From: a virus
Lineage: Duplodnaviria > Heunggongvirae > Uroviricota > Caudoviricetes
Reading direction: 5' to 3' (one strand)
Virus record (IMG/VR): IMGVR_UViG_2645727640_000044
Location: 1 to 31,891 of that record
DNA: 31,891 bases
Shown: in pieces, positions 4,268 to 30,012 of the stretch
Position numbering within the stretch: position 1 is the first letter of the stretch
How the letters are laid out: each line of letters starts with the position of its first letter
The notes under the pieces: model-generated
What the model saw: only the letters and a program-made list of their open reading frames with translations
Told to the model about the DNA's origin: nothing
The model's database searches: none
Program-made: the position numbers and the translations under genes

Positions 4268-4317
4268 ATTAAGTATGTACCTACTTATTTTTACCGATAT
4301 AAATATTTTTTTCTACA

Positions 4318-7300
4318 TTACAGAAGGCCAATTCTTACTCGTAGGACGTTGTTATCGTCATAAACGTCAATCCGCTGACCATTTATGACCAGTCGCCCAT
4401 TGCCGCCGCTATTACCGTTGATCTCAAGCGTTCCATTTTTGCCGAATCGCCATCCAGATCTACCGCTAACAAAATTGGTAGATTGCAGATCGCCTACTTT
4501 TGCATTGGTGATTGTGCCATCCTTGATATACGCTCCATTCATATAGGCGATACTGTTTTCGATAACAAATGGCGTTGTGATCTTCCCGTTAACAGAGTTG
4601 ACCAAACCAAACCTGTCCGCCTGAACCAAAAACTGAGATAGCCCAGTGGTGTCAATACCAAGCGCAATACCGGCAACATACTTCTGCCCTCCGCTCGTTG
4701 AAGTCTCCATTTTCAACGTCCACGCGGTTGACACTTTTTTGTTGGTATCAGCAATAGCTGTTGCCTGCTGTTGAATTGTCGCGGTATTTCCATCCACCTC
4801 TGCTTTCAGAGTATCGATTCGCCCACTCAGAGCATTATCTGCCTGCGTTCTCGCTGTCGTTTCAGTTGTTACCGCCGCGGAAATGTTGGCTGCCGTTTGA
4901 GACTCTAAGTTTGTGATTTGAGTCGCCAATGCAGCATCTTGCTCTGTACGCGTTTTCGTTTCGGTTGCTACAGCCGCTTTAATATCCTCTTTGTATTGAG
5001 AGGTCAGCTTGGTGATCTGAGACGACAACGCCGAGTCAGCATCAGTTCGAGCCTGCGTTTCAACTGCAACGGCCGCACTAATATCTTTCGCTGTCTGTGC
5101 TTTTAAACTTGAAACCTCTTTTGTTAAAGCGGTATCACCATCAGCACGAGCCGTTGTTTCTCTGGCAAGAGATGCCTCGAGATCATTAGCTTTTGCTGTA
5201 AGAGACGAAATCTGAGTGGACAATGCACTATCGGCATCAGTCCTTGCCTTTGTCTCTACAGCAACCGCTGCGGCAATATCAGTTCCGGTTTGTGCTCGCA
5301 GGCTGTTAATTTCTCGTGAGAGCGCCTGGTCAGCACTTGCTCTGGCCTCCTGCTCCTGAGTGATGGCAGCGGATATATCACCGTCAACCTTTGACTGAAG
5401 CTGGTTTATTTGTTTGGCTAACGCAGAGTCCCCGCTTGCTCGGGCCTCCTGCTCACTACGTATTGCAGCAGAAATATCATCATCAACCTTTGCCTGAAGT
5501 TGGGTGATCTGGCTTGCCAGAGCCGAATCTTCCGTTGCTCGGGCTTCTTGCTCTTCCTTAATAGCTGCGACGATATCGTTGCTTACTTTCGACTCAAGCT
5601 GAGTGATCTGTGTCGTCAGAGCTTCATCGGCAGATGTACGAGCCTCCTGCTCTGTACTAATCGCCGCGCTGATATCTCCTTCAAACTTAGATTGCAGCTG
5701 AGTGACACGCTTTGCCAACGCTTCATCGCCATCGGCACGAGCGGTGGACTCTTCCAGAATACTGGCCTTAATGTCTTCGCCAATTTCTACGCGAATTTCC
5801 TCAACCTTCGTGGCCATTGCAGACATATCATCAGCAAAGGTTTTCTGTGTTGTTGCGATCTTCGCGTTATTGACCATCTGCTTGTGCTGGTCTTCATCTT
5901 GACGAAGAGCCAGGTCAATATTTGTTTTGGCCAAAGCCTCAATGTTCGTAGTCAGTTCTGCACTGGCACGATCGACCTCTGCAACCGTCTTTTTCATTTC
6001 TTCAACGGCAGCGGAGCTTTCCTCTACCGTTGACTGCAACACTTCCAGTTGTTTAGCGTTTGCAGCATCACCTTCAACACGAGCCTCGCTTTCCTTAGCA
6101 ATAAGAGCCGCCGCTTCATCTCTTGCAGCCTTTATTGCCTCGACTGTATTAGCGAGAGCTTTATCGTGTTCAGATACGGTATTTTCGATTTCAACAATTG
6201 CAGCATCAGTAGCATCAATTTTTTCAAACGCTTCATTGACCTTGTCGATCGTTGCCGAAACCTCACCTTTAAGCTCGGTTTGTGCGTTCTCCAAAGCATC
6301 GCTACGCTCGTTGAATTTTATTTCAAAATCCGCGAGGTTATCGCTGAACTGCTTATCTAATTCAGCTATATCTTCCTTAACGTCGTTTACCGCCCCCTCC
6401 AAAGATTCGACGCTCTGGTTGATATGCTCATTTAACTCGTCAACGGCTTCTTGAGAGGCTTTGCTGTTGATGTCCTCAAGCAGAGCCTGACCAAGCTCGG
6501 AAGATGTAATTTTGCCAGTCAGGAACGACAGTACATCGCGAGTTGTCGCCTCTGTACCCAAGTTTGAGTTCGGAGGACTTAACATACCTCGCTTGTTCGA
6601 TGCTCGAACCCAGTAATACCACGTTTCGCTATCCCCAAGACCAGCATGTGTAAAGGTGGTGCTTGCAGACTCTGCGATCAGTTTCGCCGTATCCAGATTA
6701 TTGGTCTGGGACGCGTAAACATTAATGTGATCAAGGTCTACCGAATCTGGATTAACCCAATTCAGTATCACATTACGATAGTCTCCAACGGCCGTTAATG
6801 ACGTTGGGGCATCTGGCGGTGTCATTGTGCCCAGCACCTGATAAACGGTACTGATAATCTCTGTTTTTTTACCGTTGAATGAAACCGCATACAGCTGGAA
6901 GTCGTAGCGTCCATTCTCCGCAACATTAACGATTTCGTATTGCTCTTCGGTTACACGCGCCGATTGCCAGTTCGATACATTGTTTTCATCAGAACGTCGC
7001 CAACTGATCCAATACTCTGGAGATTTCCCTTCCCATGTTGCAGTCAGTTTTACTGACAGGTTGCCAGGGCTTGAGAGATAAGTCCCTTCGGTGATTTGCA
7101 AATTAGACGGCTTGGAGTAAGTCGGGTCCAATACCGTCGTATTTTGCGGGATAAGCGTTGCACCATTGTCGATCGCCTCATATTTAGACGGATTGTTCTC
7201 AACAGCGGTGATGTCAAAGCTACCCGGCGTTTCCCCCTGCGCGATGTTAACGATGCGAACGCGCATAGGTTCGAGGTCTGGTTCTGTAATAGTCCAGACG

Positions 7301-9045
7301 CCGTTCAAAACAGGCGTTTCAGCCGAAGACAGGGCTTTTGAAAACGTAACTTTTGTTATATTTTCGCCAGTTTCAAGAACATCGCGTTCAACGATTTTGC
7401 CTTCCTGATTCAGTATTCGAATAAAGCAGCCGCCTTTGGCTAACGACACAGGCGCATCGAGTGTGACGCTGTTTTTGGTAAACGCCACAATTCGACCTGA
7501 GTTACGTTTGCCTGCGCGATATTTGTTCTGAATCAGAACGGTTTCACCAGGCATCAGAAATGACGCGTCTAAGCCGGCAGTAAATGTAATTACATCCGAC
7601 TCCATTCTGGCGGTATATAAAAGCCATAAACCAACTCGGTGAGCCTGCCCTCGGCTTGTACAGCCAAATGCTACGACTTCTGTCTTACGCTCACCATAAC
7701 GGCGCATTGCGTCCTGATCTTCAACGTACTCGATGTTTTGCTTATAACCGTCCTCCTTGTTGTTGTAGGTTACGAGCGCAACGGATGGGCGATCTTTACG
7801 CGCAGAACCTTTATAGGTAAACAATCCATCTTTGACGTTAGAGTTGGTAAACATCATTACCGGATCTGATGGGCTATCCTGCATGATGTTAACCATCCCA
7901 CCAGCCCAAAACACCATGCCGCGGAATGCTCCAGCAATATCCTGAATTAGCCGGTATGCGTCCTGTCGACTGGTGATCTGCGTATTGATTGCAAAGCGTT
8001 TCTCTTTGCCACCAAAGCCATCATCGACCTCTTCGTCACAATATCGACCAATCTGGTACAACTGGCCAAGGTCAATCATAGATTCCGACACATACTGACC
8101 AAGGCCATATCGAGCATTGGTCAGCAAATCAAAGAGAATCCACGCGGGGTTCGAAGAAGACAACAGCTTAAAAGTACCATCCCATACCCCAGCGTAAGTG
8201 TTACTTGACTCGTTATAGTTTGAAGGTACTCGAATTTTTAGGCCACGCACCAGATAAGAGCGAGATGGCATGGTGCTGCCGAATTGCTCAGAGTTTACCT
8301 TCAATCCAACCAAAACAGAGTTTGGATAGTTCATCGGTGTATCGACAATTTCCCCGATTGAATCCACCCATGTATCGTTATAGAGATACTGGCTACTGTT
8401 ATCATCGGTAATACGGACTACACGAACCTTGTATGCGCGTCCAGGCTTAGGCAGCTTCAGCTCGTAGCTACGGTAATAAACGCCGGTCTTCTTTGCTGTT
8501 AGCTTAATGCCAACGCTTTTTTCACCTTCCGCGACCACATCTACAAATGTTGAGTCGCCATTTGCTATCTGGAACTTGTACTCAACAGTCGTACCGTTCG
8601 TGTCACCAGTTTTTTTATCTATGCTTCGCAAAGAAGGAAACTTCATGATGACACGAACCCGATCAGCTTCATCGTTATCGATTGAAACCGTTACATAATG
8701 TGTTTTTTTTAACTGGATATTGACGGATTTAGGCGTTTCAACGAAATCAAAGCCAGACATTGGAGTCTGGTCTTGTGAACCGTCGCGAAAATCCCATGTG
8801 ATTCCGCTGAAGTTGGAGGAACCGTCTTCATTTACAATCGGCAGATCGTCGATAAAAATAGATCTTGTGCCATTTACTAAGCCGCCAATTACCCCTTCCC
8901 CAAGAAGATCGAGGATAGCGGCCATTGCACGAGAATTTACGGTATCGTCGGCTTCAACCGGTGTACGGCTGGAGCTTTTGCTGCTTTTTTTACCACCCGC
9001 ACCGGCAATAAACAGCGGTAGCTTTTTCTTCTTGAACTGTTCCAT
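4318..9045 (-). CDS. Central tail fiber / host specificity protein, lambda J-like (about 1575 aa)
   Basis: Track ORF 4318..9051 (1577 aa) starts on TTG; ATG at 9043..9045 has AAGGA 10 nt upstream. Size, position after the I-like gene, and an N-terminal region typical of J-family tip proteins. Contains a long coiled-coil stalk with ten 33-aa tandem repeats before a C-terminal domain of about 150 aa. Confidence 0.85.
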   Translation of the reverse strand: MEQFKKKKLPLFIAGAGGKKSSKSSSRTPVEADDTVNSRAMAAILDLLGEGVIGGLVNGTRSIFIDDLPIVNEDGSSNFSGITWDFRDGSQDQTPMSGFDFVETPKSVNIQLKKTHYVTVSIDNDEADRVRVIMKFPSLRSIDKKTGDTNGTTVEYKFQIANGDSTFVDVVAEGEKSVGIKLTAKKTGVYYRSYELKLPKPGRAYKVRVVRITDDNSSQYLYNDTWVDSIGEIVDTPMNYPNSVLVGLKVNSEQFGSTMPSRSYLVRGLKIRVPSNYNESSNTYAGVWDGTFKLLSSSNPAWILFDLLTNARYGLGQYVSESMIDLGQLYQIGRYCDEEVDDGFGGKEKRFAINTQITSRQDAYRLIQDIAGAFRGMVFWAGGMVNIMQDSPSDPVMMFTNSNVKDGLFTYKGSARKDRPSVALVTYNNKEDGYKQNIEYVEDQDAMRRYGERKTEVVAFGCTSRGQAHRVGLWLLYTARMESDVITFTAGLDASFLMPGETVLIQNKYRAGKRNSGRIVAFTKNSVTLDAPVSLAKGGCFIRILNQEGKIVERDVLETGENITKVTFSKALSSAETPVLNGVWTITEPDLEPMRVRIVNIAQGETPGSFDITAVENNPSKYEAIDNGATLIPQNTTVLDPTYSKPSNLQITEGTYLSSPGNLSVKLTATWEGKSPEYWISWRRSDENNVSNWQSARVTEEQYEIVNVAENGRYDFQLYAVSFNGKKTEIISTVYQVLGTMTPPDAPTSLTAVGDYRNVILNWVNPDSVDLDHINVYASQTNNLDTAKLIAESASTTFTHAGLGDSETWYYWVRASNKRGMLSPPNSNLGTEATTRDVLSFLTGKITSSELGQALLEDINSKASQEAVDELNEHINQSVESLEGAVNDVKEDIAELDKQFSDNLADFEIKFNERSDALENAQTELKGEVSATIDKVNEAFEKIDATDAAIVEIENTVSEHDKALANTVEAIKAARDEAAALIAKESEARVEGDAANAKQLEVLQSTVEESSAAVEEMKKTVAEVDRASAELTTNIEALAKTNIDLALRQDEDQHKQMVNNAKIATTQKTFADDMSAMATKVEEIRVEIGEDIKASILEESTARADGDEALAKRVTQLQSKFEGDISAAISTEQEARTSADEALTTQITQLESKVSNDIVAAIKEEQEARATEDSALASQITQLQAKVDDDISAAIRSEQEARASGDSALAKQINQLQSKVDGDISAAITQEQEARASADQALSREINSLRAQTGTDIAAAVAVETKARTDADSALSTQISSLTAKANDLEASLARETTARADGDTALTKEVSSLKAQTAKDISAAVAVETQARTDADSALSSQITKLTSQYKEDIKAAVATETKTRTEQDAALATQITNLESQTAANISAAVTTETTARTQADNALSGRIDTLKAEVDGNTATIQQQATAIADTNKKVSTAWTLKMETSTSGGQKYVAGIALGIDTTGLSQFLVQADRFGLVNSVNGKITTPFVIENSIAYMNGAYIKDGTITNAKVGDLQSTNFVSGRSGWRFGKNGTLEINGNSGGNGRLVINGQRIDVYDDNNVLRVRIGLL
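4765..5760 (-). repeat. About ten tandem 99-nt (33-aa) coding repeats inside the J-like gene
   Basis: Protein repeats of the form DISAAI.xEQEARAxxDxALxxQIxQLxSKVxx read directly from the translation; the DNA shows the same periodicity. Boundaries approximate. Confidence 0.7.
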
Positions 9046-9062
9046 GTTCAAAAAATCCTTGT

Positions 9063-11132: not shown

Positions 11133-11214
11133 TGTTTCATCCTTGAAATAAGTAGGCGCTAACATCCTGTCAGCGCCACAATGATAGTAAATTAGTACTT
11201 ACTTATCCAGATAC

Positions 11215-11550
11215 TTAAGCCTCAAATACTTGTCTGAATGTAGCAGTTAAGACACAGTACCCCTGATATCGCTTGACCGTATGACTGTCACATACAACTA
11301 CAATCCGTTTTCCTCTTGGATTAACCCAATAGAACGACTCAACGCCTGCTCGCTCAGTCAGGAAGTCATCGATTGCATTAATTTCGTTGTATGATCTGGT
11401 AAAGGTTAACGACCATTCTTCTTTAATACGATTAAGACCTTGAGCCTGTCGCTGCTCGTAGTCATCACCAAAATTAAGTACCGTTACATTCGGTTTTACG
11501 CTTTTTTCAGATTCGTAATCTGGATACCAATTAAACGTTTGTCTTTCCAT
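11215..11550 (-). CDS. Minor tail protein, lambda M-like
   Basis: 111-aa ORF between tape measure and the L-like gene, the size and position of lambda gpM; ATG with AAGGA upstream. Confidence 0.7.
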   Translation of the reverse strand: MERQTFNWYPDYESEKSVKPNVTVLNFGDDYEQRQAQGLNRIKEEWSLTFTRSYNEINAIDDFLTERAGVESFYWVNPRGKRIVVVCDSHTVKRYQGYCVLTATFRQVFEA

Positions 11551-11565
11551 CTCACATCCTTGTGA

Positions 11566-11587: not shown

Positions 11588-11592
11588 GATAG

Positions 11593-16177: not shown

Positions 16178-16845
16178 TCATCCTCTGCCAAATATTTGCA
16201 TCAGTTGCTCTTTGGCGTCAGGGTCTGCCTTATCCTGGCTTGGATCGTAGACTTTATCTGTTACGACTGGTCTTCCAATCCTGAGTTGCAAACCCTCCAT
16301 GAACGCCTTCACAGCCTCGCCATCCGCCTGGGACGCACGAGCGACTTGTAAGTTGCGGACATCCTCTTCCGCACGCAGACGGTCTATATTGCGACTGAGC
16401 ATCCAGAACATCGTGAGAGGAACGTTCAGTAGCTCTAATGGCGACACGGCGTAGTGAGCAACTACACGACTGAAATAGAATCCGAGATCTATTGAGACGG
16501 TCCTTGTCCCGGATTCATCGCGGGAAATTACTTTGCCCCTTCGCCAGCCGCTTTTTCGTTTTCTTCATCAATCACTTCCATAGCGAAGGTGAAGATCTGC
16601 TGGAGTTGCGGAACAGTCAGTTTTTCAAGAACTTCATCAGGCACTGAAGGGATAACCTTACGAACCAGATCTGCATAAGCTGTCACTTGCTCAACAGGAG
16701 ACATGTTCATGAGATCTTTGCCTTCCATCTGCTTGATGGAAACGAACAAACCTACCGTCATTTCAACGATGGGATATTCCTGACCGCCAAATTTGATGCT
16801 TTTCTTCGGAGGCAGAATGGAATCGAGATCGAGTAATTTGGTCAT
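16178..16845 (-). CDS. Tail assembly chaperone GT-like fusion via putative -1 programmed frameshift
   Basis: The frame of track ORF 16178..16447 is -1 relative to the G-like frame (codon phase checked) and stays open upstream into the 3' end of the G-like gene. Candidate slip sites are GAAAAAG (16551..16557) or Lys AAG at the stop, ..GCAAAGTAA (16528..16536). Neither is a canonical XXXYYYZ heptamer. Confidence 0.5.
16528..16845 (-). CDS. Tail assembly chaperone, lambda G-like
   Basis: 105-aa ORF between the major tail and tape measure genes; ATG with AAGGA upstream; a -1 frame ORF follows. Confidence 0.7.
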   Translation of the reverse strand: MTKLLDLDSILPPKKSIKFGGQEYPIVEMTVGLFVSIKQMEGKDLMNMSPVEQVTAYADLVRKVIPSVPDEVLEKLTVPQLQQIFTFAMEVIDEENEKAAGEGAK

Positions 16846-17647: not shown

Positions 17648-17721
17648 TGATGGAAAACTCCTTTTTCCGTTAATTCTACGCATTCATTGCGCTAATAGTA
17701 AGTATATACTTACCTATTAAC

Positions 17722-21242: not shown

Positions 21243-21269
21243 AAAGGGTGGGCGTATAGCCCACCCTTT
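21243..21269 (-). terminator. Intrinsic terminator-like hairpin downstream of the major capsid gene
   Basis: Minus strand reads AAAGGGTGGGC-TATAC-GCCCACCCTTT then TTGTAGGAGCG; GC-rich stem followed by a T-run, immediately after the capsid gene stop (21301) and upstream of the next RBS. Confidence 0.6.
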
Positions 21270-21300
21270 AACATAGATAATTACTTATCTACTTCACTGA

Positions 21301-22176: not shown

Positions 22177-22201
22177 CTATCAATTCCCTTTGATTTAGAT
22201 G

Positions 22202-23089
22202 TTACTTAAGTCCAATTTTCCCCAGACCGGAGGCCAACTTATCCATAGTCGACTTGTTCTTCGGTTGGGATATTGTGTAGGTCGATTTGGAATGTGAGCC
22301 TACACCCTGCTTGGCTTCGCTACGCATCAATGCGTCAGCTTCCGGATCTGCCCGCACAATGCGTTCAATCGCGGATTCAAACGGCAACGGCTTACCTTCA
22401 CCGTCAACCAGAACAGCTCGTTCTTTGTGACCTGCCGGTTTGTCATAACCCACTACGCTACCGTCTTCACCCACTTCAAAATGAGAACCGTAGATCACGC
22501 GGGCTTTTGCCGGGGTCATCAGAACTTTGTCACGTAGGAAGAGAGAGTTACTGAAGGAAGCGCCCACGGTCATCTCGACTAATTGAGATTTCAGTGATGC
22601 GTTTTCACTTTCCAGTGCTGCATAACGTTCGTCACGCTGTGCCAGCTCTGCCTGGTGTGCTTCGATCATCTGTTTTTTAACAGCATCGAACTCACCACGA
22701 CGCTCCAGTTCAGCTTGCTCCGCCTCACGACGTGCGTTTTCTGCGGCCTGTTCAGCTTCTAAAAGCTGGCGAGCACGAGCCGGATCGATATCACCGTACT
22801 GAGCAAGCTGATCGGCCAATGTGCGCTCTTTCTCTTTGCGCTTCATGTTCTCCTTCAGCAGTTCAGCACCAGCTTTCTTGGTTTTACGAAGTTCGGCCAG
22901 TAACTCTTCCTGAGTCATGCCAGCGTATTCGTCATCGCCCTTCGGCTGCTCTTTTTGTTCACCCTGTTTGTCAGGATCTTGTGTACTCTGCTCATTATCA
23001 GCAGCTACACCGCCAGCGCCTCCACGCTCATGCGCTTCAGCGACATCCATCAGACCACGACGGGCCAAAAGCATTTGCCACAGATTCAT
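22202..23089 (-). CDS. Scaffolding-like protein (candidate)
   Basis: 295 aa with a highly charged Glu/Ala/Arg/Gln helical middle (ARQLLEAEQAAENARREAEQAELERRGEFDAVKKQMIEAHQAELAQRDERYAALESENASLKSQL); lies between portal and capsid genes; ATG with AAAGGAA upstream. Confidence 0.55.
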   Translation of the reverse strand: MNLWQMLLARRGLMDVAEAHERGGAGGVAADNEQSTQDPDKQGEQKEQPKGDDEYAGMTQEELLAELRKTKKAGAELLKENMKRKEKERTLADQLAQYGDIDPARARQLLEAEQAAENARREAEQAELERRGEFDAVKKQMIEAHQAELAQRDERYAALESENASLKSQLVEMTVGASFSNSLFLRDKVLMTPAKARVIYGSHFEVGEDGSVVGYDKPAGHKERAVLVDGEGKPLPFESAIERIVRADPEADALMRSEAKQGVGSHSKSTYTISQPKNKSTMDKLASGLGKIGLK

Positions 23090-23110
23090 AAAAATTCCTT
23101 TTGTTACTTA

Positions 23111-24685
23111 TCACTCGTTCTCTTGAGTAGATGAGTCCCCATTCCCTCGGGGTTGATCTTGCCCGCTTTCTTGGGCTGCACCACGATCATAAGTAAGTAC
23201 CGACTTATTTTCAAGGGTGTTTAGATCATTTTTTGGAGGAAAATTCAAGAGATCTTTATCAAATTCCTTTTTCATCGCCTCAGTAATGTTCGGGAAAATC
23301 TTCTCAATAAGCATTTCCATCTGGTGACGACGTACAGAGTCCGGTGCCTGAAGTAATGACAGTTTCTCGGCAACAGAAAATTCATCAGTAAGGCCACGAA
23401 TATCGAAACTTTCTGGATACGCAATTAAAGAGTGGTCTTCGTCCAGATCTACCCCCATCCATTTCGCAACCAGTAGCATGATTTGGCGTTCAGCCCTTTC
23501 CAGACGCTCTGCTTTTGTGACAAGCAAGCTATTTACACGCTGGAAGTCATACATTTTTGCGGCACCAGATGAATTATCGATTCCCTGTGCGTTGTCCTGC
23601 TTCGTTCGCTCACCAGCTACACCAACTGAATGGTAGATTTCGTTAATCACCGTCTTAATCGTAGTGATGATCATCTGAGCTTGTTTCGGGTCTGGTGACA
23701 GATAAAACGGCTGGTTTCCACCTTCAGAATCGTAGGTGAAGACTCGCTTTGTGCCCATTTCAAGCACTTTAGTGTGGTTTTCATCACCAGGTAAAAGCGA
23801 CTGTACCGGTATAGCCAACTGGCTAAATGTCTGATCCTGAATAATGGCATCAAGGTTTGACAGATAGTTTGCAACCGCACGATCAAGATAAGCGATATCA
23901 TCGATCAACGATGGGCTGAAATACGGTGATTCACTTTCTCCAATACAATCAACAGGAAACACAGGAACTACGCCGAGATTATGCTCACCGCTATCCTCTA
24001 AAATAACTTTTGCCTGACGGCGACCTGCTCCACCAGCGCCCTTCTTCACTTCCTCACGGAACAGATACCACTCGTTTTGTGTCCACAGACGATAACGTTG
24101 GTATTCCTGACCTGTAGAAGTAAAAGGATCTGCGTCATCACGAGCGACTTCCACAATTAACGCCCACAACATATTCCCGTCGTCGTCCCATGCCACATCC
24201 AGCATTTGCTGAGGTGAAATCCAGTAGGCGTAGGCGCGAGCATCTTTCTTTTTCTCGTCAGCTACTGACTCAACATCACCACTCATCGTGCTATCGACAA
24301 CAACCCATATGCGACCGTAAATAGACGACTGCAAATCAATAGCGGCCATAAATGAGTCAATAGAGGCATTCTGGCGAGTCGCACGTTTCCAGAAATTGCG
24401 GATCTGCTCTGGTGCCTCTTCGATATTTCTATGAATGTCTTCTTTAAAGAGATATTTGTTGATGAGGTTTACCACCTCACGAGTGTGGTTGAAGCGATAA
24501 GCACGTTCAACTCGCTCCTTAAACTCCTGATCTCCCTCTTTAAAGTAACGAAAGATATTGTCTGTAAACCAACCACGCCCGCCAGCGTAAGTGCTGGCGA
24601 GGAAGTCCCAATGTTCTTTTTTCTTTTCGTATTCCGGGTGGCGTCGCGCCACCAGATCCTTAATTTGTTTGTCGTTCAATTCCAT
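23111..24685 (-). CDS. Portal protein (candidate)
   Basis: 524-aa ORF immediately after the large terminase gene, acidic C-terminal tail; ATG with AAGG upstream. Assignment by synteny and size. Confidence 0.7.
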   Translation of the reverse strand: MELNDKQIKDLVARRHPEYEKKKEHWDFLASTYAGGRGWFTDNIFRYFKEGDQEFKERVERAYRFNHTREVVNLINKYLFKEDIHRNIEEAPEQIRNFWKRATRQNASIDSFMAAIDLQSSIYGRIWVVVDSTMSGDVESVADEKKKDARAYAYWISPQQMLDVAWDDDGNMLWALIVEVARDDADPFTSTGQEYQRYRLWTQNEWYLFREEVKKGAGGAGRRQAKVILEDSGEHNLGVVPVFPVDCIGESESPYFSPSLIDDIAYLDRAVANYLSNLDAIIQDQTFSQLAIPVQSLLPGDENHTKVLEMGTKRVFTYDSEGGNQPFYLSPDPKQAQMIITTIKTVINEIYHSVGVAGERTKQDNAQGIDNSSGAAKMYDFQRVNSLLVTKAERLERAERQIMLLVAKWMGVDLDEDHSLIAYPESFDIRGLTDEFSVAEKLSLLQAPDSVRRHQMEMLIEKIFPNITEAMKKEFDKDLLNFPPKNDLNTLENKSVLTYDRGAAQESGQDQPRGNGDSSTQENE

Positions 24686-24711
24686 TTGAATAACCTTAGA
24701 TAATTACTTAC

Positions 24712-25968
24712 CTATCTAGAACCACCAAGAATAACACGGTTTTTGACTGGATACCTACGATGTACTGGATAGCCCAATGCGTCTGCACTATGCTCAATGC
24801 CACCCGTCTTATCCATATCTCGTGTTCCAGGCTTGTAGATGACTTTTTCCAGTGAATCAATCAAATGCTTGCACTTCGGATCGATATACAGCCGGATATC
24901 TCCAGATGCGGACATCAGCATTCGGTTAACAGCATTAACACGATCCGCAATTGGCGGGTGCTTTTTCGAATAATCGACACGTAAGAATCCCTTCTCTTTG
25001 AATATGTCTACGTCAGACTCCCCACGAGCATGTTGGCGATAAGCACCTGCCGGATCTGGAAATACCGTTACCTGTGATTTCCAGCGCCAGAAGCGTCTCT
25101 CAAGCTCATCACAAACTTCTGCCGTGTTAGAGGAAAAGAGCACCAATTCATCAATTGCCCATAGCTCACCATTTGGCTGAGGTTGCAAAATTACTGAAGA
25201 CATCGGGTCAATGTTGAAGTCCTGCCCTACCCATATAGGCAACCGAGGGTTGAACTGAAGCGGTTTTACATGCACGTTACGATCGAACGGGTAGTAAACG
25301 CGCCCGGACATGTTCTCAAAGCTGGCCAGGTACTCCTGAGCGAACGATTTGGGGTCCATATCGTTCTTAGCAGCTTCAATTTCCGCCGTAGGTACAAACG
25401 GAGAATCGGCAGTTACAAACTGCCAGCTCTTCCACTGTCCCTTTCTTTGCAGCTCTACGTTCTGGCCTATAGTCCACAGTTTGTGAAATTCCGAGAAGCC
25501 TTTTGGCGTACCAATGATCAGTGCACCGCCGCGTGTCGATGAAAGAGTAGGTCGTAACACCTTGTACCAGGTGTCAGCCTTCATATCCTGAAATTCATCA
25601 AGCACTACAAAATGCAACGCTACGCCGCGCAGAGTGTCAGGCTTATCAGCACCTTTGAGGGCGATCTCCGAACCGTTCTTCAACACGATTGTCATCGTGG
25701 TGTCGTTCTTTTTCCTAACCCACTTACGAGGCAGAACTTCCTGTAGATCGTCCCACAAAATCTGGCGAGCCATCTGGTAAGTAGGAGCGACATACCAGAC
25801 CCTTTGCTTTTTTTCCTTTGCCGCCGCACGAATAATAGTGGAGATCGACAACCGGGATTTTCCCCAGCGTCGACCAGCACAAACAACTTTAAATCGATGC
25901 GGAGACTGGAAGACTTTCATCTGTCCAGAATGCAGTTGCACAAGACTGAGCGAGGACGGGATTGCCAT
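24712..25968 (-). CDS. terL: Terminase large subunit
   Basis: Walker A VVCAGRRWGKSRLS, Walker B-like HFVVLDEFQDM, Asp-rich C-terminal nuclease-like region (VGQDFNIDPMSSV ... IDELV). ATG overlaps the upstream stop as TAATG. Confidence 0.85.
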   Translation of the reverse strand: MAIPSSLSLVQLHSGQMKVFQSPHRFKVVCAGRRWGKSRLSISTIIRAAAKEKKQRVWYVAPTYQMARQILWDDLQEVLPRKWVRKKNDTTMTIVLKNGSEIALKGADKPDTLRGVALHFVVLDEFQDMKADTWYKVLRPTLSSTRGGALIIGTPKGFSEFHKLWTIGQNVELQRKGQWKSWQFVTADSPFVPTAEIEAAKNDMDPKSFAQEYLASFENMSGRVYYPFDRNVHVKPLQFNPRLPIWVGQDFNIDPMSSVILQPQPNGELWAIDELVLFSSNTAEVCDELERRFWRWKSQVTVFPDPAGAYRQHARGESDVDIFKEKGFLRVDYSKKHPPIADRVNAVNRMLMSASGDIRLYIDPKCKHLIDSLEKVIYKPGTRDMDKTGGIEHSADALGYPVHRRYPVKNRVILGGSR

Positions 25969-26600
25969 TATTCGTCCTCCCCTTCACTTCCATCATCTGT
26001 CGCATCAAATTCGCTTAGAGCTTCTTCTTCCAACGTCTCAAGCAATTCGTCATCGATGATTTCAGGCTCGTCGTCTTCCTGACGTAATTTCGCCACCTGG
26101 GAAGGCGTAAGCTCACCAAATACCAGGTTCGGAATTTCTTCCTCGTCATTTTCCGCATGATCCATGCCCAATGCTTTGGACGAAACTTCAAAGCATTTTG
26201 CAAGGGTATTACTGGCTCTCTGTAAGCTCTTGAGAGAATCCTCAATCGCCCCTAAAGGCTTACCCTCACGTTTGGCCGTAGTGACTTCGACCATCACCAT
26301 CTGCCCCAACGCATACGCCCAGCCGTCATAACGTGTACGACGTTCTTCTATCTTTTCCGCACGGGCTTTAGCGCGAAGCTCTGCGTCAGATTTAAGAGAC
26401 TCACGAACCATCTTCCCAACAGAGTCCGCGCCTTTCTCTAATCCTCGCTTTTTGAAATGTCTGGAGAGTGTTTCACGACGAATGCCGTACTCTTCCTCAA
26501 GCTTTGAGAGTGTATATTCGCCTGACGTCCATTTGGCTTCAGCTTCGGCCCACTCCGCTGGTGTCAGGCGAGTTTTTACCTCGTCTTTTTCGACCGTCAT
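25968..26600 (-). CDS. terS: Terminase small subunit (candidate)
   Basis: 210 aa directly upstream of and coupled to terL; HTH-like N-terminus (LSKLEEEYGIRRETLSRHFKKRG), strongly acidic C-terminus; GAGGGA RBS. Confidence 0.6.
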   Translation of the reverse strand: MTVEKDEVKTRLTPAEWAEAEAKWTSGEYTLSKLEEEYGIRRETLSRHFKKRGLEKGADSVGKMVRESLKSDAELRAKARAEKIEERRTRYDGWAYALGQMVMVEVTTAKREGKPLGAIEDSLKSLQRASNTLAKCFEVSSKALGMDHAENDEEEIPNLVFGELTPSQVAKLRQEDDEPEIIDDELLETLEEEALSEFDATDDGSEGEDE

Positions 26601-26680
26601 AGATCCCTCTAAAACACACAGAGCGCGTCCATGCGCTCTAAAACAACTTGTTTACTGCATCTGCTAACCAACTTGTTTTC
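26601..26680 (-). repeat. Cluster of direct and inverted repeats immediately upstream of terS (candidate packaging or operator site)
   Basis: Plus-strand CTCTAAAACA at 26607..26616 and 26636..26645, flanking hairpin AGAGCGC-GTCCAT-GCGCTCT (26619..26638); CAACTTGTTT at 26643..26652 and 26669..26678; palindrome AAACAA-C-TTGTTT at 26641..26653. Confidence 0.35.
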
Positions 26681-26795
26681 TGGGGTGTTTAATTAGGTCT
26701 GGCATGTCTTACGAAGCCTGCTTCCGTATATATTTAATAAGTTACTTATTATTTATATATACAGATGCAGGTCTTTAAATAAGCTCCCAGACCGA

Positions 26796-27062
26796 TTACA
26801 TCACCAGTAACTTCGCTTTGGCTCGACCTAAAGTGGTTAACCCAAGAGTTCGGCGGTGATAGCGATTGTCACTGCGTTGGCGCGTATGCCCTTTCTCCAC
26901 CAGCCCCTTTTTTATCAGAGCGCGAATTGAGAACTGGATACTTTGCTTGGTTGTCTTGTACGGCAAAACTTCAAGCAATTCGTCCAGGTCAAGTAGATGA
27001 CCTCGCTCATAACCGAGATTGAGCGTTTTGATGATGTCCTTTTGTTTATCGGTTAACGTCAT
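26796..27062 (-). CDS. Small winged-helix-like DNA-binding protein (candidate regulator)
   Basis: 88 aa, basic; segment LPYKTTKQSIQFSIRALIKKGLVEKG resembles a recognition helix plus wing. ATG with AAGGA upstream, 9 nt after the GNAT-like gene stop. Confidence 0.45.
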   Translation of the reverse strand: MTLTDKQKDIIKTLNLGYERGHLLDLDELLEVLPYKTTKQSIQFSIRALIKKGLVEKGHTRQRSDNRYHRRTLGLTTLGRAKAKLLVM

Positions 27063-27071
27063 GGCAAATCC

Positions 27072-27962
27072 TTATGCCGGTAAAGCAATTTCTAACGGTT
27101 TATCCAAAGGTTGTTTGTCGAATGCCAGCAGTGGCAGCGTGTCAGGCAGTCGACGGCCAAAGTCAGGGTTTCGGTACACACCATACAACGGAGACGTAAA
27201 GCTCAGGTTGTGAATGTCCTTGAGCAGCTTCACAATGCTGGCCTCGTCCACCAGACTGTCGGCAATGTCCTGAATCGTCGTGCCACGATTCCGCCCAGCT
27301 TTTGCCAGGGAACTGTTCTTATGGTAGTCCGCCACCAAATCGCGCAGCGCACGGCGACGACGAGACTCGCTCATAGCGAACAACTCTTTGACGATCGCCT
27401 CGTTATCACCCGGGTCGGAGCGGAAATGGCGCTGGAACACACGCAGTGCACTTTCATAGCTCTTCGGTCGCTCAGGGCGGATGAACTTAAACCCTGCTTT
27501 CATGGCGAAGGGATTGTATTTGCTCATCGAGGACTGGATCTCAATGATTGGCCGGTCATGCATCCTGCTAACCAGGTTAATCATTCGATAAGAGACGCCT
27601 ACGCCACGATACTGAGTATCCACAACTGAGCGACTGATCACCGCAAAGTTGTTATTCACGTACCGACCCCAGTACTGGTTAGCCACGGTGGTATTAGTGG
27701 TTGGTTTCAACTTAGGAAACATGCGGTGGCGAGGTGCCAACAGTAGTTTCGGGTAAGCCATAACCACGACGCCCACCAGACGGTCATCCAGTTCGCAGCG
27801 ATAGTATGTTGGCGCGAAAGGTTTGCCGTCTGTTTTGTAGTGAAGCGACTTAAGAGCGTGCCAGTCCTCTACAGTTCCCTTTGTGACAGTCATTCGCTCC
27901 AGAAAGTCCAGATGACGCGGAAACTCTTCAGGGCGGTAGCGTTTGATGATGATGTCCGTCAT
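27072..27962 (-). CDS. GNAT-fold acyltransferase-like protein with C-terminal extension of about 120 aa
   Basis: GNAT motif A-like AVISRSVVDTQYRGVGVSYRMINLV and motif B-like NPFAMKAGFKFI, read by eye. ATG overlaps the upstream stop as ATGA. Confidence 0.5.
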   Translation of the reverse strand: MTDIIIKRYRPEEFPRHLDFLERMTVTKGTVEDWHALKSLHYKTDGKPFAPTYYRCELDDRLVGVVVMAYPKLLLAPRHRMFPKLKPTTNTTVANQYWGRYVNNNFAVISRSVVDTQYRGVGVSYRMINLVSRMHDRPIIEIQSSMSKYNPFAMKAGFKFIRPERPKSYESALRVFQRHFRSDPGDNEAIVKELFAMSESRRRRALRDLVADYHKNSSLAKAGRNRGTTIQDIADSLVDEASIVKLLKDIHNLSFTSPLYGVYRNPDFGRRLPDTLPLLAFDKQPLDKPLEIALPA

Positions 27963-28624
27963 GAATGGACCTCATCATGACTACCATTGTGATATTCCAC
28001 CTTCACGCGTTCTTTGTAGTGCTTGGTGATCTGCATATCCGGGCGCAGCGCGTTCTTCAGGTCTTCGTGAGTCGTCGCCACCATTACCGTCGCACCAACC
28101 TTTCGAGCGGCACGCTGGAGGTTAGATGCCACAACCTGAGCGGTTACACGGTCTAGAACAGCACCGAACTCGTCAGCAGCCCACACTTTAGCGCCTGACT
28201 CAATCAGTTTGGCAATCTTGAGACGATATTTCTGACCGTCTGACATTTCAGAAGGCTTGCGAACAAACAGATATGCATCGTTCAGACCAGCCATAGATAA
28301 CAACCCAAGCGCATCGCTGGTCGTTTTGCCCAACTGATCGATGACGTTAACCTCATTATCGAAGGTAAAATCATCGATGGAGGCTACAGACAGCCCTTCA
28401 TCCTTCATCTGTCGTTGCAACTCGCGCAGCACAACGGATTTGCCGGAACCGGATTGGCCGGTGATATACACCACATCGCCCTGCTTCACTTCCAGCTCCA
28501 GATTGTCGTAAAGCGTCCACTCTTTTTCGTCCAGGCCAAGCCCGAACGACTCAGCGATTTCCAACGTGCGCGTGGTTTTATTTACGCGTGTCTGAAACGA
28601 TACGTTGATGATGTATTTGCTCAT
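27959..28624 (-). CDS. ABC-type P-loop ATPase (nucleotide-binding domain only)
   Basis: Walker A ITGQSGSGKS, signature-like MSDGQKYRLKIAKL, Walker B AKVWAADEF, H-loop VATTHED; ATG overlaps the upstream stop as ATGA; GGGGAG RBS. Confidence 0.75.
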   Translation of the reverse strand: MSKYIINVSFQTRVNKTTRTLEIAESFGLGLDEKEWTLYDNLELEVKQGDVVYITGQSGSGKSVVLRELQRQMKDEGLSVASIDDFTFDNEVNVIDQLGKTTSDALGLLSMAGLNDAYLFVRKPSEMSDGQKYRLKIAKLIESGAKVWAADEFGAVLDRVTAQVVASNLQRAARKVGATVMVATTHEDLKNALRPDMQITKHYKERVKVEYHNGSHDEVHS

Positions 28625-29289
28625 GCAGCCATCTCCCCAGAAGAGATCTTCTCCGCATATGCCACAAATGCGTCTACCCCGCTTTCTCCCGTCATTTCTT
28701 CCATGTGGGCAAGCAAATCACCAACAACAATGGCAGAGCCAGCAGGGAGCGTTTTAAAGCCCAATACGTCGACAACACGTACTTCTTCCGCTGCAACTTC
28801 ACGACTGATCTCGGTGTGTTCATCCTTCTGTCGTTTAGTTTCTTCGCCAAGATCGATAACTAGCGAGTCGGTGTCCATTTCTTCTGTCATACTGCCAACG
28901 AGAACATTCAACTCACGCTCTTCAAAGCCGAAAACCTCGATATCGTCCAGAACAAGCGACTCAAGCTCTTTCTGTAGCTTAATTGCATCGTAATCAATGC
29001 TGGCAAGTCGGTTATCTTCAAGGCGCTTCGCACGAACCTCGTCATCACTGAGATCATCGCGAACAATAACCGGTACGCGCTCAAGTCCAGCAAAAATTGC
29101 AGCCTCACGGCGGCCGTGGCCAGTAATAATTACGTCGTTCTTATCGACCGTAATTGGCTGGTCAAATCCGCGCTTTTTAATGGCTGCGGCCAGATCTCGG
29201 ATCTGCTGTTCATCATGCTTTTTGGCATTCATCTCATAGGGAATAAGATCTGCCGGGTCGCGATATACGATTTCAAACTTTTTGGTCAT
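28621..29289 (-). CDS. ParB/Srx-fold nuclease-domain protein (second copy)
   Basis: GxxRxxA motif ITGHGRREAAIFAG characteristic of the ParB N-terminal domain; ATG at 29289 with AAGGAG upstream, overlapping the upstream stop as TAATG. The track's longer ORF (to 29322) starts further upstream. Confidence 0.7.
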   Translation of the reverse strand: MTKKFEIVYRDPADLIPYEMNAKKHDEQQIRDLAAAIKKRGFDQPITVDKNDVIITGHGRREAAIFAGLERVPVIVRDDLSDDEVRAKRLEDNRLASIDYDAIKLQKELESLVLDDIEVFGFEERELNVLVGSMTEEMDTDSLVIDLGEETKRQKDEHTEISREVAAEEVRVVDVLGFKTLPAGSAIVVGDLLAHMEEMTGESGVDAFVAYAEKISSGEMAA

Positions 29290-29969
29290 TACATACGCTC
29301 CTTGTAGTAGTCGACCAGCCACACCAGAGCCTCACCAGCGTTCTCCATTTCATTACCGGTGTTAATAGCCTGCTCTTTGATGATGTTTTTTATGGTTTCT
29401 GCAACACGATCTGACGCATCGAAAGTTACTTTGAAGCGCATGGTCTGATGTTCCGCACCCACACGTTCGGTTTTCTCTCGTTTGTCGGTATCGACAGGCT
29501 CATCACTACCACGAGACAACGCCTCCAGTGCTTCAAGGTCGATTGCCGCCTCTTTTGCTAAAACCATCGAGATTTCGTCGTCATACGGGGCGATTTCAGA
29601 CAGTTGATAGTCAAGTTCTGACTGAATTTCTTCAATGAAGCGTTGCAATGCGATTTGGTCGTCTTCACCGTATCGCTCGTTGTCCACCAGTGACATCTGT
29701 TTAGCTACGACATCGCTAATTTTGCCCACAGAAAGCACCGGAACCGTTGAAATTCCTTGCTCAATAGCGGCACGCCAGCGATGTTCGCCGCCGAGGATTT
29801 CAAAAAATCCATCTTCAAGTTCACGAGCCAAAATTGGCTTAAAAAAGCCCAATTTTTCGATAGAACCTTTCAGTTTTTCAAAATTCTGCGCACCAACCGA
29901 ATTGGTGTTCCAGGTATTCGGGCGAAGGTTGGCAACATCAACCTGCAAAATCGTGATTTTTACATCCAT
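29289..29969 (-). CDS. ParB/Srx-fold nuclease-domain protein (first copy)
   Basis: ParB box II-like ILGGEHRWRAAIEQGISTVPVL (compare GERRxRA). Start uncertain: ATG at 29969 (MDVKITIL...) or GTG at 29987; neither has a strong SD. Confidence 0.65.
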   Translation of the reverse strand: MDVKITILQVDVANLRPNTWNTNSVGAQNFEKLKGSIEKLGFFKPILARELEDGFFEILGGEHRWRAAIEQGISTVPVLSVGKISDVVAKQMSLVDNERYGEDDQIALQRFIEEIQSELDYQLSEIAPYDDEISMVLAKEAAIDLEALEALSRGSDEPVDTDKREKTERVGAEHQTMRFKVTFDASDRVAETIKNIIKEQAINTGNEMENAGEALVWLVDYYKERM

Positions 29970-30003
29970 TTTATTGCTACAATCCACTAAGTAATCACTT
30001 ACT

Positions 30004-30012
30004 TATTATAAT
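30004..30012 (+). promoter_or_regulatory. Candidate -10 element in the divergent spacer between the ParB operon and the helicase gene
   Basis: TATAAT at 30007..30012 within the palindromic ATTATAAT, about 40 nt upstream of the helicase ATG; no good -35 recognised. Confidence 0.3.

Follow-up and report, generated by a model that had tools for sequence, protein, structure and literature searches.

The window, the whole 31,891-nucleotide stretch of DNA analyzed here, belongs to an SSU5-like phage-plasmid and is 99.5% identical to Escherichia phage Cyrano. SSU5-like phage-plasmids are common; pHCM2 of S. Typhi and pLF82/Cyrano belong to the group, as do many elements of Klebsiella and E. coli, some of them with resistance genes. 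The related records come from E. coli, Salmonella, and Klebsiella hosts. Coding sequence accounts for 30,951 nt of the window, and the spacers annotated as intergenic total 892 nt (2.8%). ParB-like proteins are encoded at 28621-29969, and the last gene of the ParB-like operon encodes an 88-residue wHTH protein (26796-27062). The gene for a cI-like XRE-family repressor (the CYRAN_45 homologue) is outside the window.

The sequence-only reading had picked out a recurrent TACTTA-core motif with a strong bias toward the spacers, and both observations hold. TACTTA occurs 20 times in the window compared to 9.3 expected, a count that none of 100 shuffles reached, and TTACTTAYC occurs four times compared to 0.27 expected. 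The 892 nt of spacers contain 10 gene-strand copies of TAAGTA, whereas dinucleotide-preserving shuffles of the spacers themselves predict 1.09 (maximum of 5 in 2000), and the coding DNA of the window contains a single sense copy. TAAGTA tops the intergenic hexamer over-representation in the whole Cyrano genome (31 versus 7.4, z = 8.5). The genome-wide count and matrix check proposed earlier find intergenic enrichment over the shuffled background in both the window and Cyrano, and the whole-window and spacer-only shuffles exclude chance or base composition as the cause of the excess.

The earlier description understated the motif. TACTTA/TAAGTA is one arm of a palindrome of about 20 bp, ATARGTAAGT·ACTTACYTAT, where the dot marks the center. 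An iteratively refined matrix identified 87 sites in three genomes (Cyrano, SSU5, and Klebsiella pJN2-26), or about 28 per genome, with 30 in SSU5 and eight full sites in the window. The density of matrix sites is 220-277 per Mb in the phage-plasmids compared to 16-33 per Mb in unrelated bacterial DNA, and the same matrix found no site in the first 50 kb of P1. In Cyrano, 26 of the 28 sites (~93%) touch intergenic DNA. Sites adjoin late genes and also early genes of replication and nucleotide metabolism, the latter outside the window; the other lysogeny and plasmid modules have none. The palindrome sequence is absent from papers in the searchable literature, where no description of regulation in SSU5-like phage-plasmids, including SSU5 promoters or operators, was found.

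The spacing of the arms is restricted. TARGT-N(s)-ACYTA occurs with s = 0, 4, or 8 only in Cyrano, SSU5, and pJN2-26, and the s = 4 form is present in 14, 17, and 19 copies, respectively, where our uniform-base calculation gives an expectation of about 0.4. The left and right halves show no asymmetry out to 11 bp from the center. The best-strand split of the sites (54 versus 33) disappears once strand choice is removed, and the apparent gene-strand orientation of the motif arises because the palindrome is symmetric. The arms do not covary: Watson-Crick pairs are observed as often as expected at every mirrored pair, and an A/C mismatch is the commonest combination at mirrored position +-7. Taken together, the symmetry and the lack of arm covariation fit duplex DNA recognized by a symmetric protein. 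The symmetrized frequencies of the core GTAAGT are G 77%, T 97%, A 88%, A 75%, G 67%, and T 84%, and those of the outer positions are T 91%, A 84%, R 90%, and G 77%.

Palindromic sites, the long inverted repeat, and isolated half-sites in the window. Strand is given where assigned.
Feature	Position	Strand	Location	Matrix score
Palindromic site, gene strand ATAAGTAGGTACATACTTAA	4269..4288		J-to-tail-fibre spacer	28.0
Palindromic site GATAAGTAAGTACTAATTTACTAT	11187..11206		Spacer between tail genes M and L	22.7
Palindromic site ATAGGTAAGTATATACTTACTAT, half-sites 4 bp apart	17698..17717		Upstream of major tail protein gene	31.3
Weaker palindromic site TAGATAAGTAATTATCTA	21273..21292		Major capsid/Ig-like gene spacer	17.4
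Isolated half-site TAAGTAA, not a full site	22202..22208	-	Overlaps scaffold-like gene stop codon	
Isolated half-site GATAAGTAA	23104..23112	-	Directly after portal stop codon (TGA 23113-23111)	
Full site	23189..23208		Inside portal gene, 3' end	24.6
Palindromic site TAGATAGGTAAGTAATTATCTA	24696..24715		26-nt spacer, large terminase/portal genes	25.7
Long inverted repeat CCTGCATCTGTATATAT...ATATATACGGAAGCAGG	26717..26771		Upstream of small terminase gene	
Palindromic site	29987..30006		Divergent region, UvsW-like helicase gene/ParB-like operon	24.4

Seven of the nine spacer positions listed in the sequence-only reading are full sites; the other two, 22201-22213 and 23102-23114, are single half-sites that the matrix does not score. 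The first half-site reads CAAGTAA at the same place in SSU5 and pJN2-26, and the second is conserved with its other arm missing. The reverse-complement copy noted inside the portal gene near 23190 is present and is actually a full site. A near-consensus sigma70 promoter, TTGAAA-17-TATGAT, runs along the minus strand here (23214..23186; 10/12 matches), and the site, some 100 nt upstream of the scaffold-like gene, takes up its spacer and -10. The sigma70-like promoter TGGATA-17-TATCAT encloses the tail M/L site, and the site in the divergent region directly adjoins a perfect TATAAT on the minus strand (30010..30005). Hairpins come after several sites: a GC hairpin (4247-4267) follows the tail-fibre site on the gene strand, a hairpin at 11155-11177 follows the M/L site, and an intrinsic-terminator-like hairpin (21250-21266) follows the capsid site. 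The long inverted repeat is centered on a variant form of the motif (26737-26756) in which 1 bp separates the arms, TAAGT-A-ACTTA. There are three such repeats per genome, and this one is probably a distinct element.

Conservation in related phages, named earlier as a check on the motif, is evident: syntenic spacers carry sites in Cyrano, SSU5, pJN2-26, and a divergent relative with 25-56% protein identity. The tail-fibre site has orthologues in Cyrano and SSU5, and the major tail site is conserved in the three genomes. The M/L site is kept in SSU5, pJN2-26, and the divergent relative, and the large terminase/portal spacer retains its site even in that relative, where protein identity is about 50%. 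The portal-internal site is the same in SSU5 as in Cyrano and differs by one base in pJN2-26, and the pJN2-26 equivalent of the weaker capsid site is a perfect palindrome. The palindrome core of the divergent relative is unchanged, and its outer bases have changed in concert, with TTAAGT replacing ATAGGT.

The motif had been proposed as a promoter element or a regulator-binding site. The second alternative stands, since the element is symmetric, conserved, and of the TetR operator type; the first is not supported, since a directional -10 is lacking. A -10-like TAnnnT lies on the gene side of 46 of the 87 sites and on the non-gene side of 44. The equal counts and the symmetry led us to reject a T4-like late promoter (TATAAATA) or a directional -10. 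A general sigma70 promoter was also rejected; a good -35 was found at two independent loci only, G at -13 at 4 of the 87 sites, and the position of the palindrome relative to sigma70-like promoters varies (-14, +7, and +10). Several palindrome centers are just 12-28 nt from start codons. Among site-overlapping sigma70-like promoters, 27 are forward-only compared to 9 reverse-only, the gene strand being commoner (pooled p = 0.004, a value that counts orthologous sites together; per genome, p = 0.42, 0.23, and 0.012). In transcriptomes of the Cyrano (LF82) lysogen and of macrophage growth (PMC9928086 supplement), expression steps over the site-bearing spacers are mixed and reach significance in condition B6 only (p = 0.044). 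CYRAN_34 and CYRAN_81 are expressed in lysogens despite an upstream site, and genes downstream of sites do not differ from other genes in their correlation with the cI-like mRNA (p = 0.15). In comparisons with SSU5 and pJN2-26, 8 mosaic breakpoints fall near sites, whereas random intergenic positions predict 12.6; with no enrichment, a recombination or module-boundary element of the T4-type PeSL kind was rejected.

The exact 18-mer of the palindrome occurs in other bacteria: of 120 loci across unrelated phyla, 69 have it upstream of a gene for a TetR-family regulator. The median distance to the TetR-family gene is 24 nt (31 neighbors, picked by HTH motif), and the 18-mer sits in the -35/-10 spacer of a TTGACA...TACAAT-type promoter. 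Judged from this placement, the palindrome is a TetR-type operator in other bacteria. None of the other host-factor sites considered (DnaA box, IHF, Fis, FNR, NarL heptamers, H-NS nucleation site, and MqsA) is known to fit the full palindrome.

SlmA is a host TetR-family nucleoid-occlusion factor that blocks E. coli division over DNA, and its complex with an SlmA-binding site (SBS) is the form that antagonizes the division protein FtsZ. There are 300-400 SlmA molecules per cell and 5-11 SBSs per Mb of the E. coli chromosome. These chromosomal sites were reportedly the subject of work by Cho et al. and Tonthat et al. in 2011. SlmA recognizes GTGAGTACTCAC, in which G1, T2, A4, and G5 are essential; either purine is accepted at position 3 of the 12-mer (Kd of 60 nM versus 50 nM), and either pyrimidine at position 6 (PMC3020112). 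At 20 bp the consensus reads GTAAGTGAGCGCTCACTTAC and SBS17 reads GTTAGTGACCATTTACTTAC, and binding is as a dimer of dimers (PMC4423959, the source of the SBS sequences used here). Within the E. coli chromosome, 22 of 24 SBSs are inside genes and outside promoters (PMC5519180, PMC3020112). An SBS placed between the -35 and -10 of a synthetic Psbs::lacZ reporter is a proven SlmA operator (PMC3573117), and SlmA has so far been described as a transcription factor at one Vibrio promoter (PMC5519180). That E. coli, Salmonella, and Klebsiella have slmA is taken from established knowledge and PMC3020112.

The phage consensus is identical to the 20-bp SlmA consensus at 14 of 20 positions and, by our own count, matches at 18 of 20 when tolerated R/Y changes are allowed. 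This match takes in the outer TAAG/CTTA flanks and agrees with the extended consensus GTAAGTGAGC·GCTCACTTAC, and the core GTAAGT·ACTTAC satisfies every position of the 12-bp rule GTRAGY·RCTYAC. Individual sites are less uniform: 8 fit the 12-mer rule exactly, 35 depart from it at one position, and 44 at two or more, and many combine one good and one imperfect half under the strict rule. The sole match in the window at one mismatch or fewer is 29991-30002 (one mismatch). The matrix derived from the phage sites gives 11.6 bits to the E. coli SlmA consensus and 11.4 bits to SBS17, both in the correct register, at a level that random sequence reaches about 10-28 times per Mb; the weaker natural site SBS12 scores -5.1 bits and is not recognized. 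At +-4, A is found in 88% of the phage half-sites and G in just 2%, compared to G in the E. coli SlmA consensus, and +-10 is likewise A versus G. The A preference at +-4 may reflect an A-preferring factor or AT pressure. A search of every reading frame in Cyrano, SSU5, and pJN2-26 found no TetR or SlmA-like ORF (best E = 0.43). On these sequence comparisons, the specificity of the palindrome in enterobacteria is that of SlmA. The unchanged core in the divergent relative, together with the 30 sites kept in SSU5 despite its lack of integrase, cI-like, and cro-like genes, fits a conserved host factor. We favor, with a probability of roughly 0.55, the view that the palindromes are a dense array of SlmA-binding sites that host SlmA would occupy, repressing or obstructing transcription and/or controlling division.

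The main rival, which we consider unlikely, is that the palindrome is the operator of a global regulator encoded by the phage, with a coincidental or convergent likeness to the SlmA site. A dispersed operator network would then keep about 90 kb of lytic genes silent while the element is a plasmid, as P1 C1 or the L5 gp71 stoperators do. The best candidate is the cI-like repressor. Its gene is expressed at 10 times background in lysogens (PMC9928086), and its recognition helix is conserved between Cyrano and pJN2-26. In nearly all of 54 IMG/VR loci (cI-like protein 66-100% identical; four variants have a shortened or one-base-altered core), the conserved cI-like promoter TTTACA-16-TAATAT has a core copy, GGTAAG(C/T)ACTTACC, just downstream of its -10, and this position at +1 also suits autoregulation by a phage protein. 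The site-free lysogeny and plasmid modules, the operator-like overlap with promoters at variable positions, the concerted outer-base shift in the divergent relative, and the strong preference for A over G at +-4 point the same way. The gene content of SSU5 speaks against the cI-like protein, as does the single core copy, rather than an array, in the cI-like/cro-like gene spacer. The wHTH protein, proposed as the binder by the sequence-only reading, and the ParB-like proteins are alternative candidates. SlmA is likelier, because Cyrano lysogens express their operon near background or at the read floor; neither can thus be the lysogenic repressor, an argument against a role in lysogeny and not against binding. 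A P1 C1-type repressor was rejected, since the site is symmetric and no C1 homologue was found (best E = 0.6). Any non-TetR protein would need to have evolved the 18/20 match to the SlmA site independently.

The late-promoter -22 box of P1 is AAGT(G/T)ACTT, followed after 4 bp by the -10. That the palindrome is an activator box of this kind, read by an Lpa-like factor with host RNA polymerase, is very unlikely. The palindromic box in the annotated P1 record, AAGTNACTT, is close to the core AAGT·ACTT, and the long inverted repeats contain it exactly with its free central base, a base that is missing from the core except in those three repeats. On their gene side, late-gene sites often carry TAnnnT at +8 to +13, and macrophage-grown lysogens show mRNA step-ups of 2.5-3.7 log2 over the site spacers of CYRAN_12, 56, and 60. 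However, neither phmmer nor an HMM built from 10 Lpa proteins detected a homologue of Lpa (PF25716) in any frame (best E = 0.17), and hhalign gives the wHTH protein a 0.2% probability of matching Lpa. The missing Lpa and the lack of a fixed -10, given the equal TAnnnT counts on the two sides, led us to reject a P1 Lpa-type late promoter. The variable positions relative to promoters, the centers close to start codons, the sites at early as well as late genes, and the three window spacers with a site upstream of a terminator-like hairpin also count against it. Least plausible is a hairpin in RNA or single-stranded DNA that signals processing or stability, terminates weakly, or is targeted by an FljA-like, RNA-binding repressor of translation. 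Sites do directly follow stop codons and directly precede Shine-Dalgarno sequences, and real sites fold slightly better than column-shuffled ones (-3.9 versus -3.1 kcal/mol, z = -3.6). The element also encodes an FljA-family protein (PF03614, E = 1e-80) just outside the window, which is more likely a host-directed flagellin repressor. An RNA hairpin or intrinsic terminator was rejected because compensatory stem changes are absent, with mirrored pairs at the null expectation (z = 0.5), and the GC-rich hairpins after some sites are separate features. The stems are weak, AT-rich, and without a U tract; base identity is conserved instead of pairing, and the element shows no asymmetry relative to the direction of transcription.

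If host SlmA is the binding factor, it would occupy the phage palindromes as a dimer of dimers. SlmA on a site at a promoter spacer, a -10, a start point, or inside an operon would repress or obstruct transcription, as in Psbs::lacZ. Replication of the element would titrate SlmA, because there are only 300-400 molecules per cell, and derepress the site-bearing promoters. About 28 sites in roughly five plasmid copies would amount to 3-6 times the number of chromosomal sites and exceed what 300-400 SlmA molecules can fill, so that derepression of lytic promoters would depend on copy number. A replicated element would also fill the cell with SlmA-SBS complexes acting against FtsZ. The plasmid, or hundreds of replicating phage genomes, could in this way tie host division to plasmid segregation or block division during lytic growth, and division would be controlled through DNA sites instead of a phage-encoded inhibitor protein. 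We propose only tentatively that the array has both roles, with SlmA as a borrowed, titratable repressor of lytic promoters and the DNA as a platform that activates SlmA against FtsZ.

An SlmA array of this kind would be a mobile element with a set of nucleoid-occlusion sites, which is undescribed in the literature found, where coverage of arrays was incomplete. It would provide a testable link between phage-plasmid copy number, gene silencing, and host cell division, and it would extend the transcription-factor role of SlmA beyond a single Vibrio promoter. Even with a phage protein as the binder, the motif defines the main regulon of the SSU5-like family.

The phage sites and SBSs are both 20-bp palindromes with the half-site TAAGT(R)AG(Y), and they have the essential G, T, A, and G in common. 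The two departures from the 12-mer consensus are substitutions known to be tolerated, and phage half-sites overlapping at a 4-bp offset suit a dimer of dimers. They differ in density, which is 25-50 times higher in the phage-plasmids than in the E. coli chromosome, in the near-exclusive A at +-4, and in location: the phage sites are mostly intergenic and often overlap promoters, whereas the chromosomal sites are mostly intragenic and outside promoters. Autoregulated TetR operators share the same 18-mer, and some phage sites are likewise embedded in promoters (TTGAAA-17-TATCAT/TATGAT), but those operators number one or two and adjoin the cognate TetR gene, in contrast to about 28 sites and no such gene in the phage. 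P1 late promoters are similar in that a palindromic AAGT...ACTT core precedes genes for morphogenesis and packaging, again in a phage-plasmid; the sites described here have a different central spacing, lack a fixed downstream -10 or Lpa, and are not restricted to late genes. The 17-bp operators of P1 C1 and the 13-bp stoperators of L5 are asymmetric, oriented, and bound by phage-encoded repressors. Like them, the palindrome has many dispersed intergenic copies in a temperate phage that overlap promoters or lie within operons, one of them at the repressor promoter, but it is symmetric, its sequence is different, and the element has no C1 homologue. With the stoperators of cluster A mycobacteriophages it shares a location in short intra-operon spacers, whereas it is symmetric rather than asymmetric in a single orientation.

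By sequence the window is a 32-kb part of an SSU5-like phage-plasmid, with 98.6–99.5% identity to Escherichia phages CMS-2020a and Cyrano (pLF82) and ~82% identity to Salmonella phage SSU5. Its orientation is reversed relative to those records. The gene order is tail fibre, tail genes, head genes, terminase genes, a ParB-like operon, and a UvsW-like helicase gene divergent from that operon. The whole-genome context was taken from annotated Cyrano, SSU5, and Klebsiella pJN2-26. The tip of the tail-fibre gene, which extends past the window edge, is variable and repeat-containing, based on a segment without collinear alignment to Cyrano and on diverged internal repeats (73–93% identity). A "spacer" annotated between two genes upstream of the tape-measure gene (80–116 nt) is near-identical across Cyrano, SSU5, and pJN2-26, whereas true spacers are not, and is probably the coding sequence of a tail assembly chaperone extended by a G/GT-type programmed frameshift.

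Features of the window and of the comparison genomes
Feature	Position	Strand	Remark
Tail-fibre gene	1–4224 (start ~4224)	minus	extends past window edge
Segment not collinear with Cyrano	1–1043
Diverged internal repeats	533–2138
GC-rich hairpins after palindrome	21250–21266, 11155–11177, 4247–4267		late-gene spacers
Annotated "spacer", probably coding	16448–16527
Covarying hairpin	~17655–17695		upstream of major tail protein gene
TTGAAA-17-TATGAT, near-consensus sigma70 promoter	23186–23214	minus	10/12; inside portal gene
Long inverted repeat	26717–26771; Cyrano 31150–31215, 78080–78140		equivalents in SSU5, pJN2-26
ParB-like operon	26796–29969	minus
Site within one mismatch of 12-mer	29991–30002
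Perfect TATAAT			abuts site upstream of ParB-like operon
TTGAAA-17-TATCAT	Cyrano		upstream of CYRAN_56
CYRAN_81	Cyrano 78477–78791		outside window
FljA-like gene	Cyrano 100780–101301		~2 kb past window's right end

The hexamer TACTTA occurs 20 times in the window compared to 9.3 expected, and TTACTTAYC occurs 4 times compared to 0.27. Spacers account for 892 nt (2.8%) and contain 10 gene-strand TAAGTA copies versus 1.09 expected when the spacers themselves are shuffled, and a single sense copy falls within the 30,951 coding nt. These data bear out the intergenic bias noted in the sequence-only reading, and it extends to the whole genome: TAAGTA is the top over-represented intergenic hexamer in Cyrano (31 versus 7.4, z = 8.5). 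Anchored alignment shows that the bases 3′ of the hexamer are conserved. Opposed TARGT and ACYTA arms are separated by 0, 4, or 8 bp only, never by 2, 3, 6, or 7, and the 4-bp arrangement is found 14, 17, and 19 times in Cyrano, SSU5, and pJN2-26, respectively (~0.4 expected per genome). An iteratively refined matrix converges on a 20-bp palindrome with the halves ATARGTAAGT and ACTTACYTAT that has 87 sites in the three genomes, and 26 of the 28 in Cyrano touch intergenic DNA. The window has eight full sites. Seven of the nine spacer motifs originally proposed are among the full sites, and those at 22201–22213 and 23102–23114 are lone half-sites at stop codons; the portal gene copy, noted there as a reverse complement, is a full site.

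Beyond the window, sites lie upstream of both late genes and genes for replication, recombination, and nucleotide metabolism, and the matrix scan of whole genomes found none in the integrase, repA, parA/toxin-antitoxin, or accessory regions. The density is 220–277 per Mb in the phage genomes compared to 0 in 50 kb of P1, 16–33 per Mb in unrelated bacterial DNA, and a literature value of 5–11 per Mb for the E. coli chromosome. The site is conserved in related phages, being retained at orthologous spacers of Cyrano, SSU5, and pJN2-26 while the flanks diverge. A distant relative with the same gene order and 25–56% protein identity (IMG/VR contig 2713896750_000003) has sites in the large terminase/portal and tail M/L spacers and upstream of the small terminase gene; their core is unchanged, and the outer bases are altered in concert (TTAAGTAAGTACTTACTTAA).

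The palindrome could act as an RNA hairpin, a promoter element, or a protein-binding site. RNAfold energies are marginally better than column-shuffled controls, and fixed-register pairing matches the null expectation. Oriented to the gene strand, the left and right halves do not differ statistically within ±11 bp, and Watson-Crick pairs at mirrored positions match the independent-column expectation exactly, with an A/C mismatch the most frequent combination at ±7. Thus base identity is conserved rather than pairing, which points to a site for a symmetric protein on duplex DNA and leaves the hairpin little likelihood. The earlier proposal of a promoter element is not supported as such: TAnnnT adjacent to the palindrome is equally common on the gene side (46/87) and the other side (44/87), so there is no directional −10. 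Site-overlapping sigma70-like promoters (≥9/12 matches) are commoner on the gene strand when pooled (27 forward-only versus 9 reverse-only, p = 0.004; per genome p = 0.42, 0.23, and 0.012). Their position relative to the site varies (−14, +7, +10), which is operator and not activator-box behaviour, and we give an activator box little credence. The palindrome occupies the spacer and −10 of the promoter inside the portal gene, ~100 nt upstream of the scaffold-like gene; SSU5 and pJN2-26 retain this promoter. The perfect TATAAT at the ParB-like operon and TTGAAA-17-TATCAT upstream of CYRAN_56 are further examples of promoters that overlap a site.

A scan of one genome per bacterial species located the exact 18-mer at >120 loci in unrelated phyla. 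In 69 of the 120 loci examined (L213–L332), the adjoining gene (start within ~160 nt) is a TetR-family regulator. In the contexts inspected a TTGACA-like −35 and a TACAAT-like −10 flank the palindrome, and the start codon is a median of 24 nt from the palindrome centre (31 neighbours picked by HTH motif). These data identify the 18-mer as a TetR-type operator sequence. Autoregulated TetR genes of Acidobacteriota, Verrucomicrobiota, Planctomycetota, Bacillota, Bifidobacterium, and others have the 20-bp palindrome GTAAGTAAGTACTTACTTAC as an operator embedded in their promoters, so the DNA specificity of SlmA, the host nucleoid-occlusion protein that antagonises FtsZ, may descend from a TetR repressor subfamily of wide distribution.

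Among enterobacterial TetR proteins, the one with this specificity is SlmA. Tonthat et al. define its site as GTGAGTACTCAC, in which G1, T2, A4, and G5 are essential, position 3 takes any purine (G to A, Kd 60 nM versus 50 nM), and position 6 any pyrimidine (PMC3020112). Cho et al. gave the 20-bp consensus as AAGTAAGTGAGCGCTCACTTACGT; a natural SlmA-binding site, SBS17, reads ...GTTAGTGACCATTTACTTAC..., the protein binds as a dimer of dimers, and there are 300–400 SlmA molecules and 24–52 chromosomal sites per cell (PMC4423959). The phage and E. coli consensus sequences are identical at 14/20 positions; counting tolerated substitutions, of which each half has two, raises the match to 18/20, with the outer TAAG/CTTA flanks among the matching positions. 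A pair of half-sites nested with a 4-bp offset accounts for the 0/4/8 spacing and fits a dimer of dimers. With a symmetric matrix derived from phage sites only, the E. coli consensus reaches 11.6 bits and SBS17 reaches 11.4 bits, both in the correct register, a score found ~10–28 times per Mb of random DNA; the matrix did not recover the weaker SBS12. Many sites have one half that is imperfect against the strict 12-mer, and only one window site is within one mismatch of it. Position ±4 is almost exclusively A. We consider the palindrome a candidate host SlmA site, with a probability of roughly 0.55.

A phage-encoded regulator is a less likely binder. Pfam and PHROGs searches identified two ParB_N proteins, a winged-helix-like protein of 88 aa with no family assigned, ATPases, a cI-like HTH_19 protein, and an FljA-like protein, and no TetR or SlmA-like ORF occurs in any frame of Cyrano, SSU5, or pJN2-26. 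The cI-like promoter (TTTACA-16-TAATAT) has a core copy, GGTAAG(C/T)ACTTACC, directly 3′ in nearly all of 54 IMG/VR loci, which suits a phage repressor equally well; the recognition helix is conserved, and the gene is expressed at 10 times background in lysogens of E. coli LF82. However, SSU5 is without the cI-like gene and still has 30 sites, and in the lysogens expression of CYRAN_119, the first ParB-like gene, is at the read floor, with the remaining genes of its operon, the winged-helix gene among them, at background. Expression steps across site-bearing spacers are mixed in these transcriptomes.

The ParB-like operon encodes the two ParB_N proteins, an ABC-type ATPase, a second ATPase-like protein, and the winged-helix-like protein. 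The small terminase gene follows immediately, an order kept in the distant relative at ~40% identity. The FljA-like gene belongs to the "repressor of phase-1 flagellin" family (PF03614, E = 1e-80). Because FljA proteins prevent translation of fliC, this gene probably serves lysogenic conversion by silencing flagellin of the host. CYRAN_81, a 44-codon ORF (89–95% conserved) preceded by a strongly structured spacer of 179 nt (−56 kcal/mol), is expressed at ~12 times background in lysogens and may act as a regulatory small RNA or as a peptide.

Other elements accompany the palindrome. Just 3′ of it, in the spacer before the major tail protein gene, lies a small hairpin whose arms differ in sequence among the three genomes yet stay paired (GCGCA..TGCG, GCACC..GGTGC, GTGTC..GACAC). 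The covariation is genuine, and the hairpin is therefore probably a structured 5′ leader or weak terminator. Three late-gene spacers read stop codon, palindrome, GC-rich hairpin, Shine-Dalgarno, and start codon on the gene strand; a consensus scan finds two of these hairpins terminator-like, and the one nearest the tail-fibre gene is without a T-run. In early-gene spacers the terminator usually comes first and the palindrome second. A long inverted repeat, CCTGCTTCTGTATATA...TAAGT-N-ACTTA...TATATACAGAAGCAGG, has three copies per genome, flanks with CTGGGAG/CCCAGAC-type repeats, and a free central base (A, G, C, or T). One copy separates the winged-helix and small terminase genes. Its candidate roles are a strong bidirectional terminator, a packaging signal, an origin, or another regulator's site.

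A site between −35 and −10 renders a promoter SlmA-repressible, and a multicopy plasmid with tandem sites plus mild SlmA overproduction blocks division cell-wide (PMC3573117). SlmA on the phage sites would repress or obstruct lytic transcription units. At a plasmid copy number of ~5.5 per cell (PMC9928086), phage sites would exceed in number the chromosomal sites and the SlmA tetramers alike; occupancy would drop as the element replicates, and FtsZ-active SlmA-site complexes would multiply. We argue for a local transcriptional role because the sites persist at syntenic spacers, are intergenic, and overlap predicted promoters, and for an extra cell-wide effect on SlmA because they are so numerous.

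P1 late promoters have a similar AAGTNACTT box, and the centre of the long repeat, AAGTNACTT, is the exact form of their −22 box. They differ in having a fixed −10, which is absent from the phage sites. Homology searches of the phage ORFs found no homologue of the P1 late-promoter activator Lpa, to which the winged-helix protein is unrelated, and a P1 Lpa-type late promoter was rejected. Compared with SlmA sites of the host chromosome, which are mostly within genes, the phage sites are almost all intergenic.
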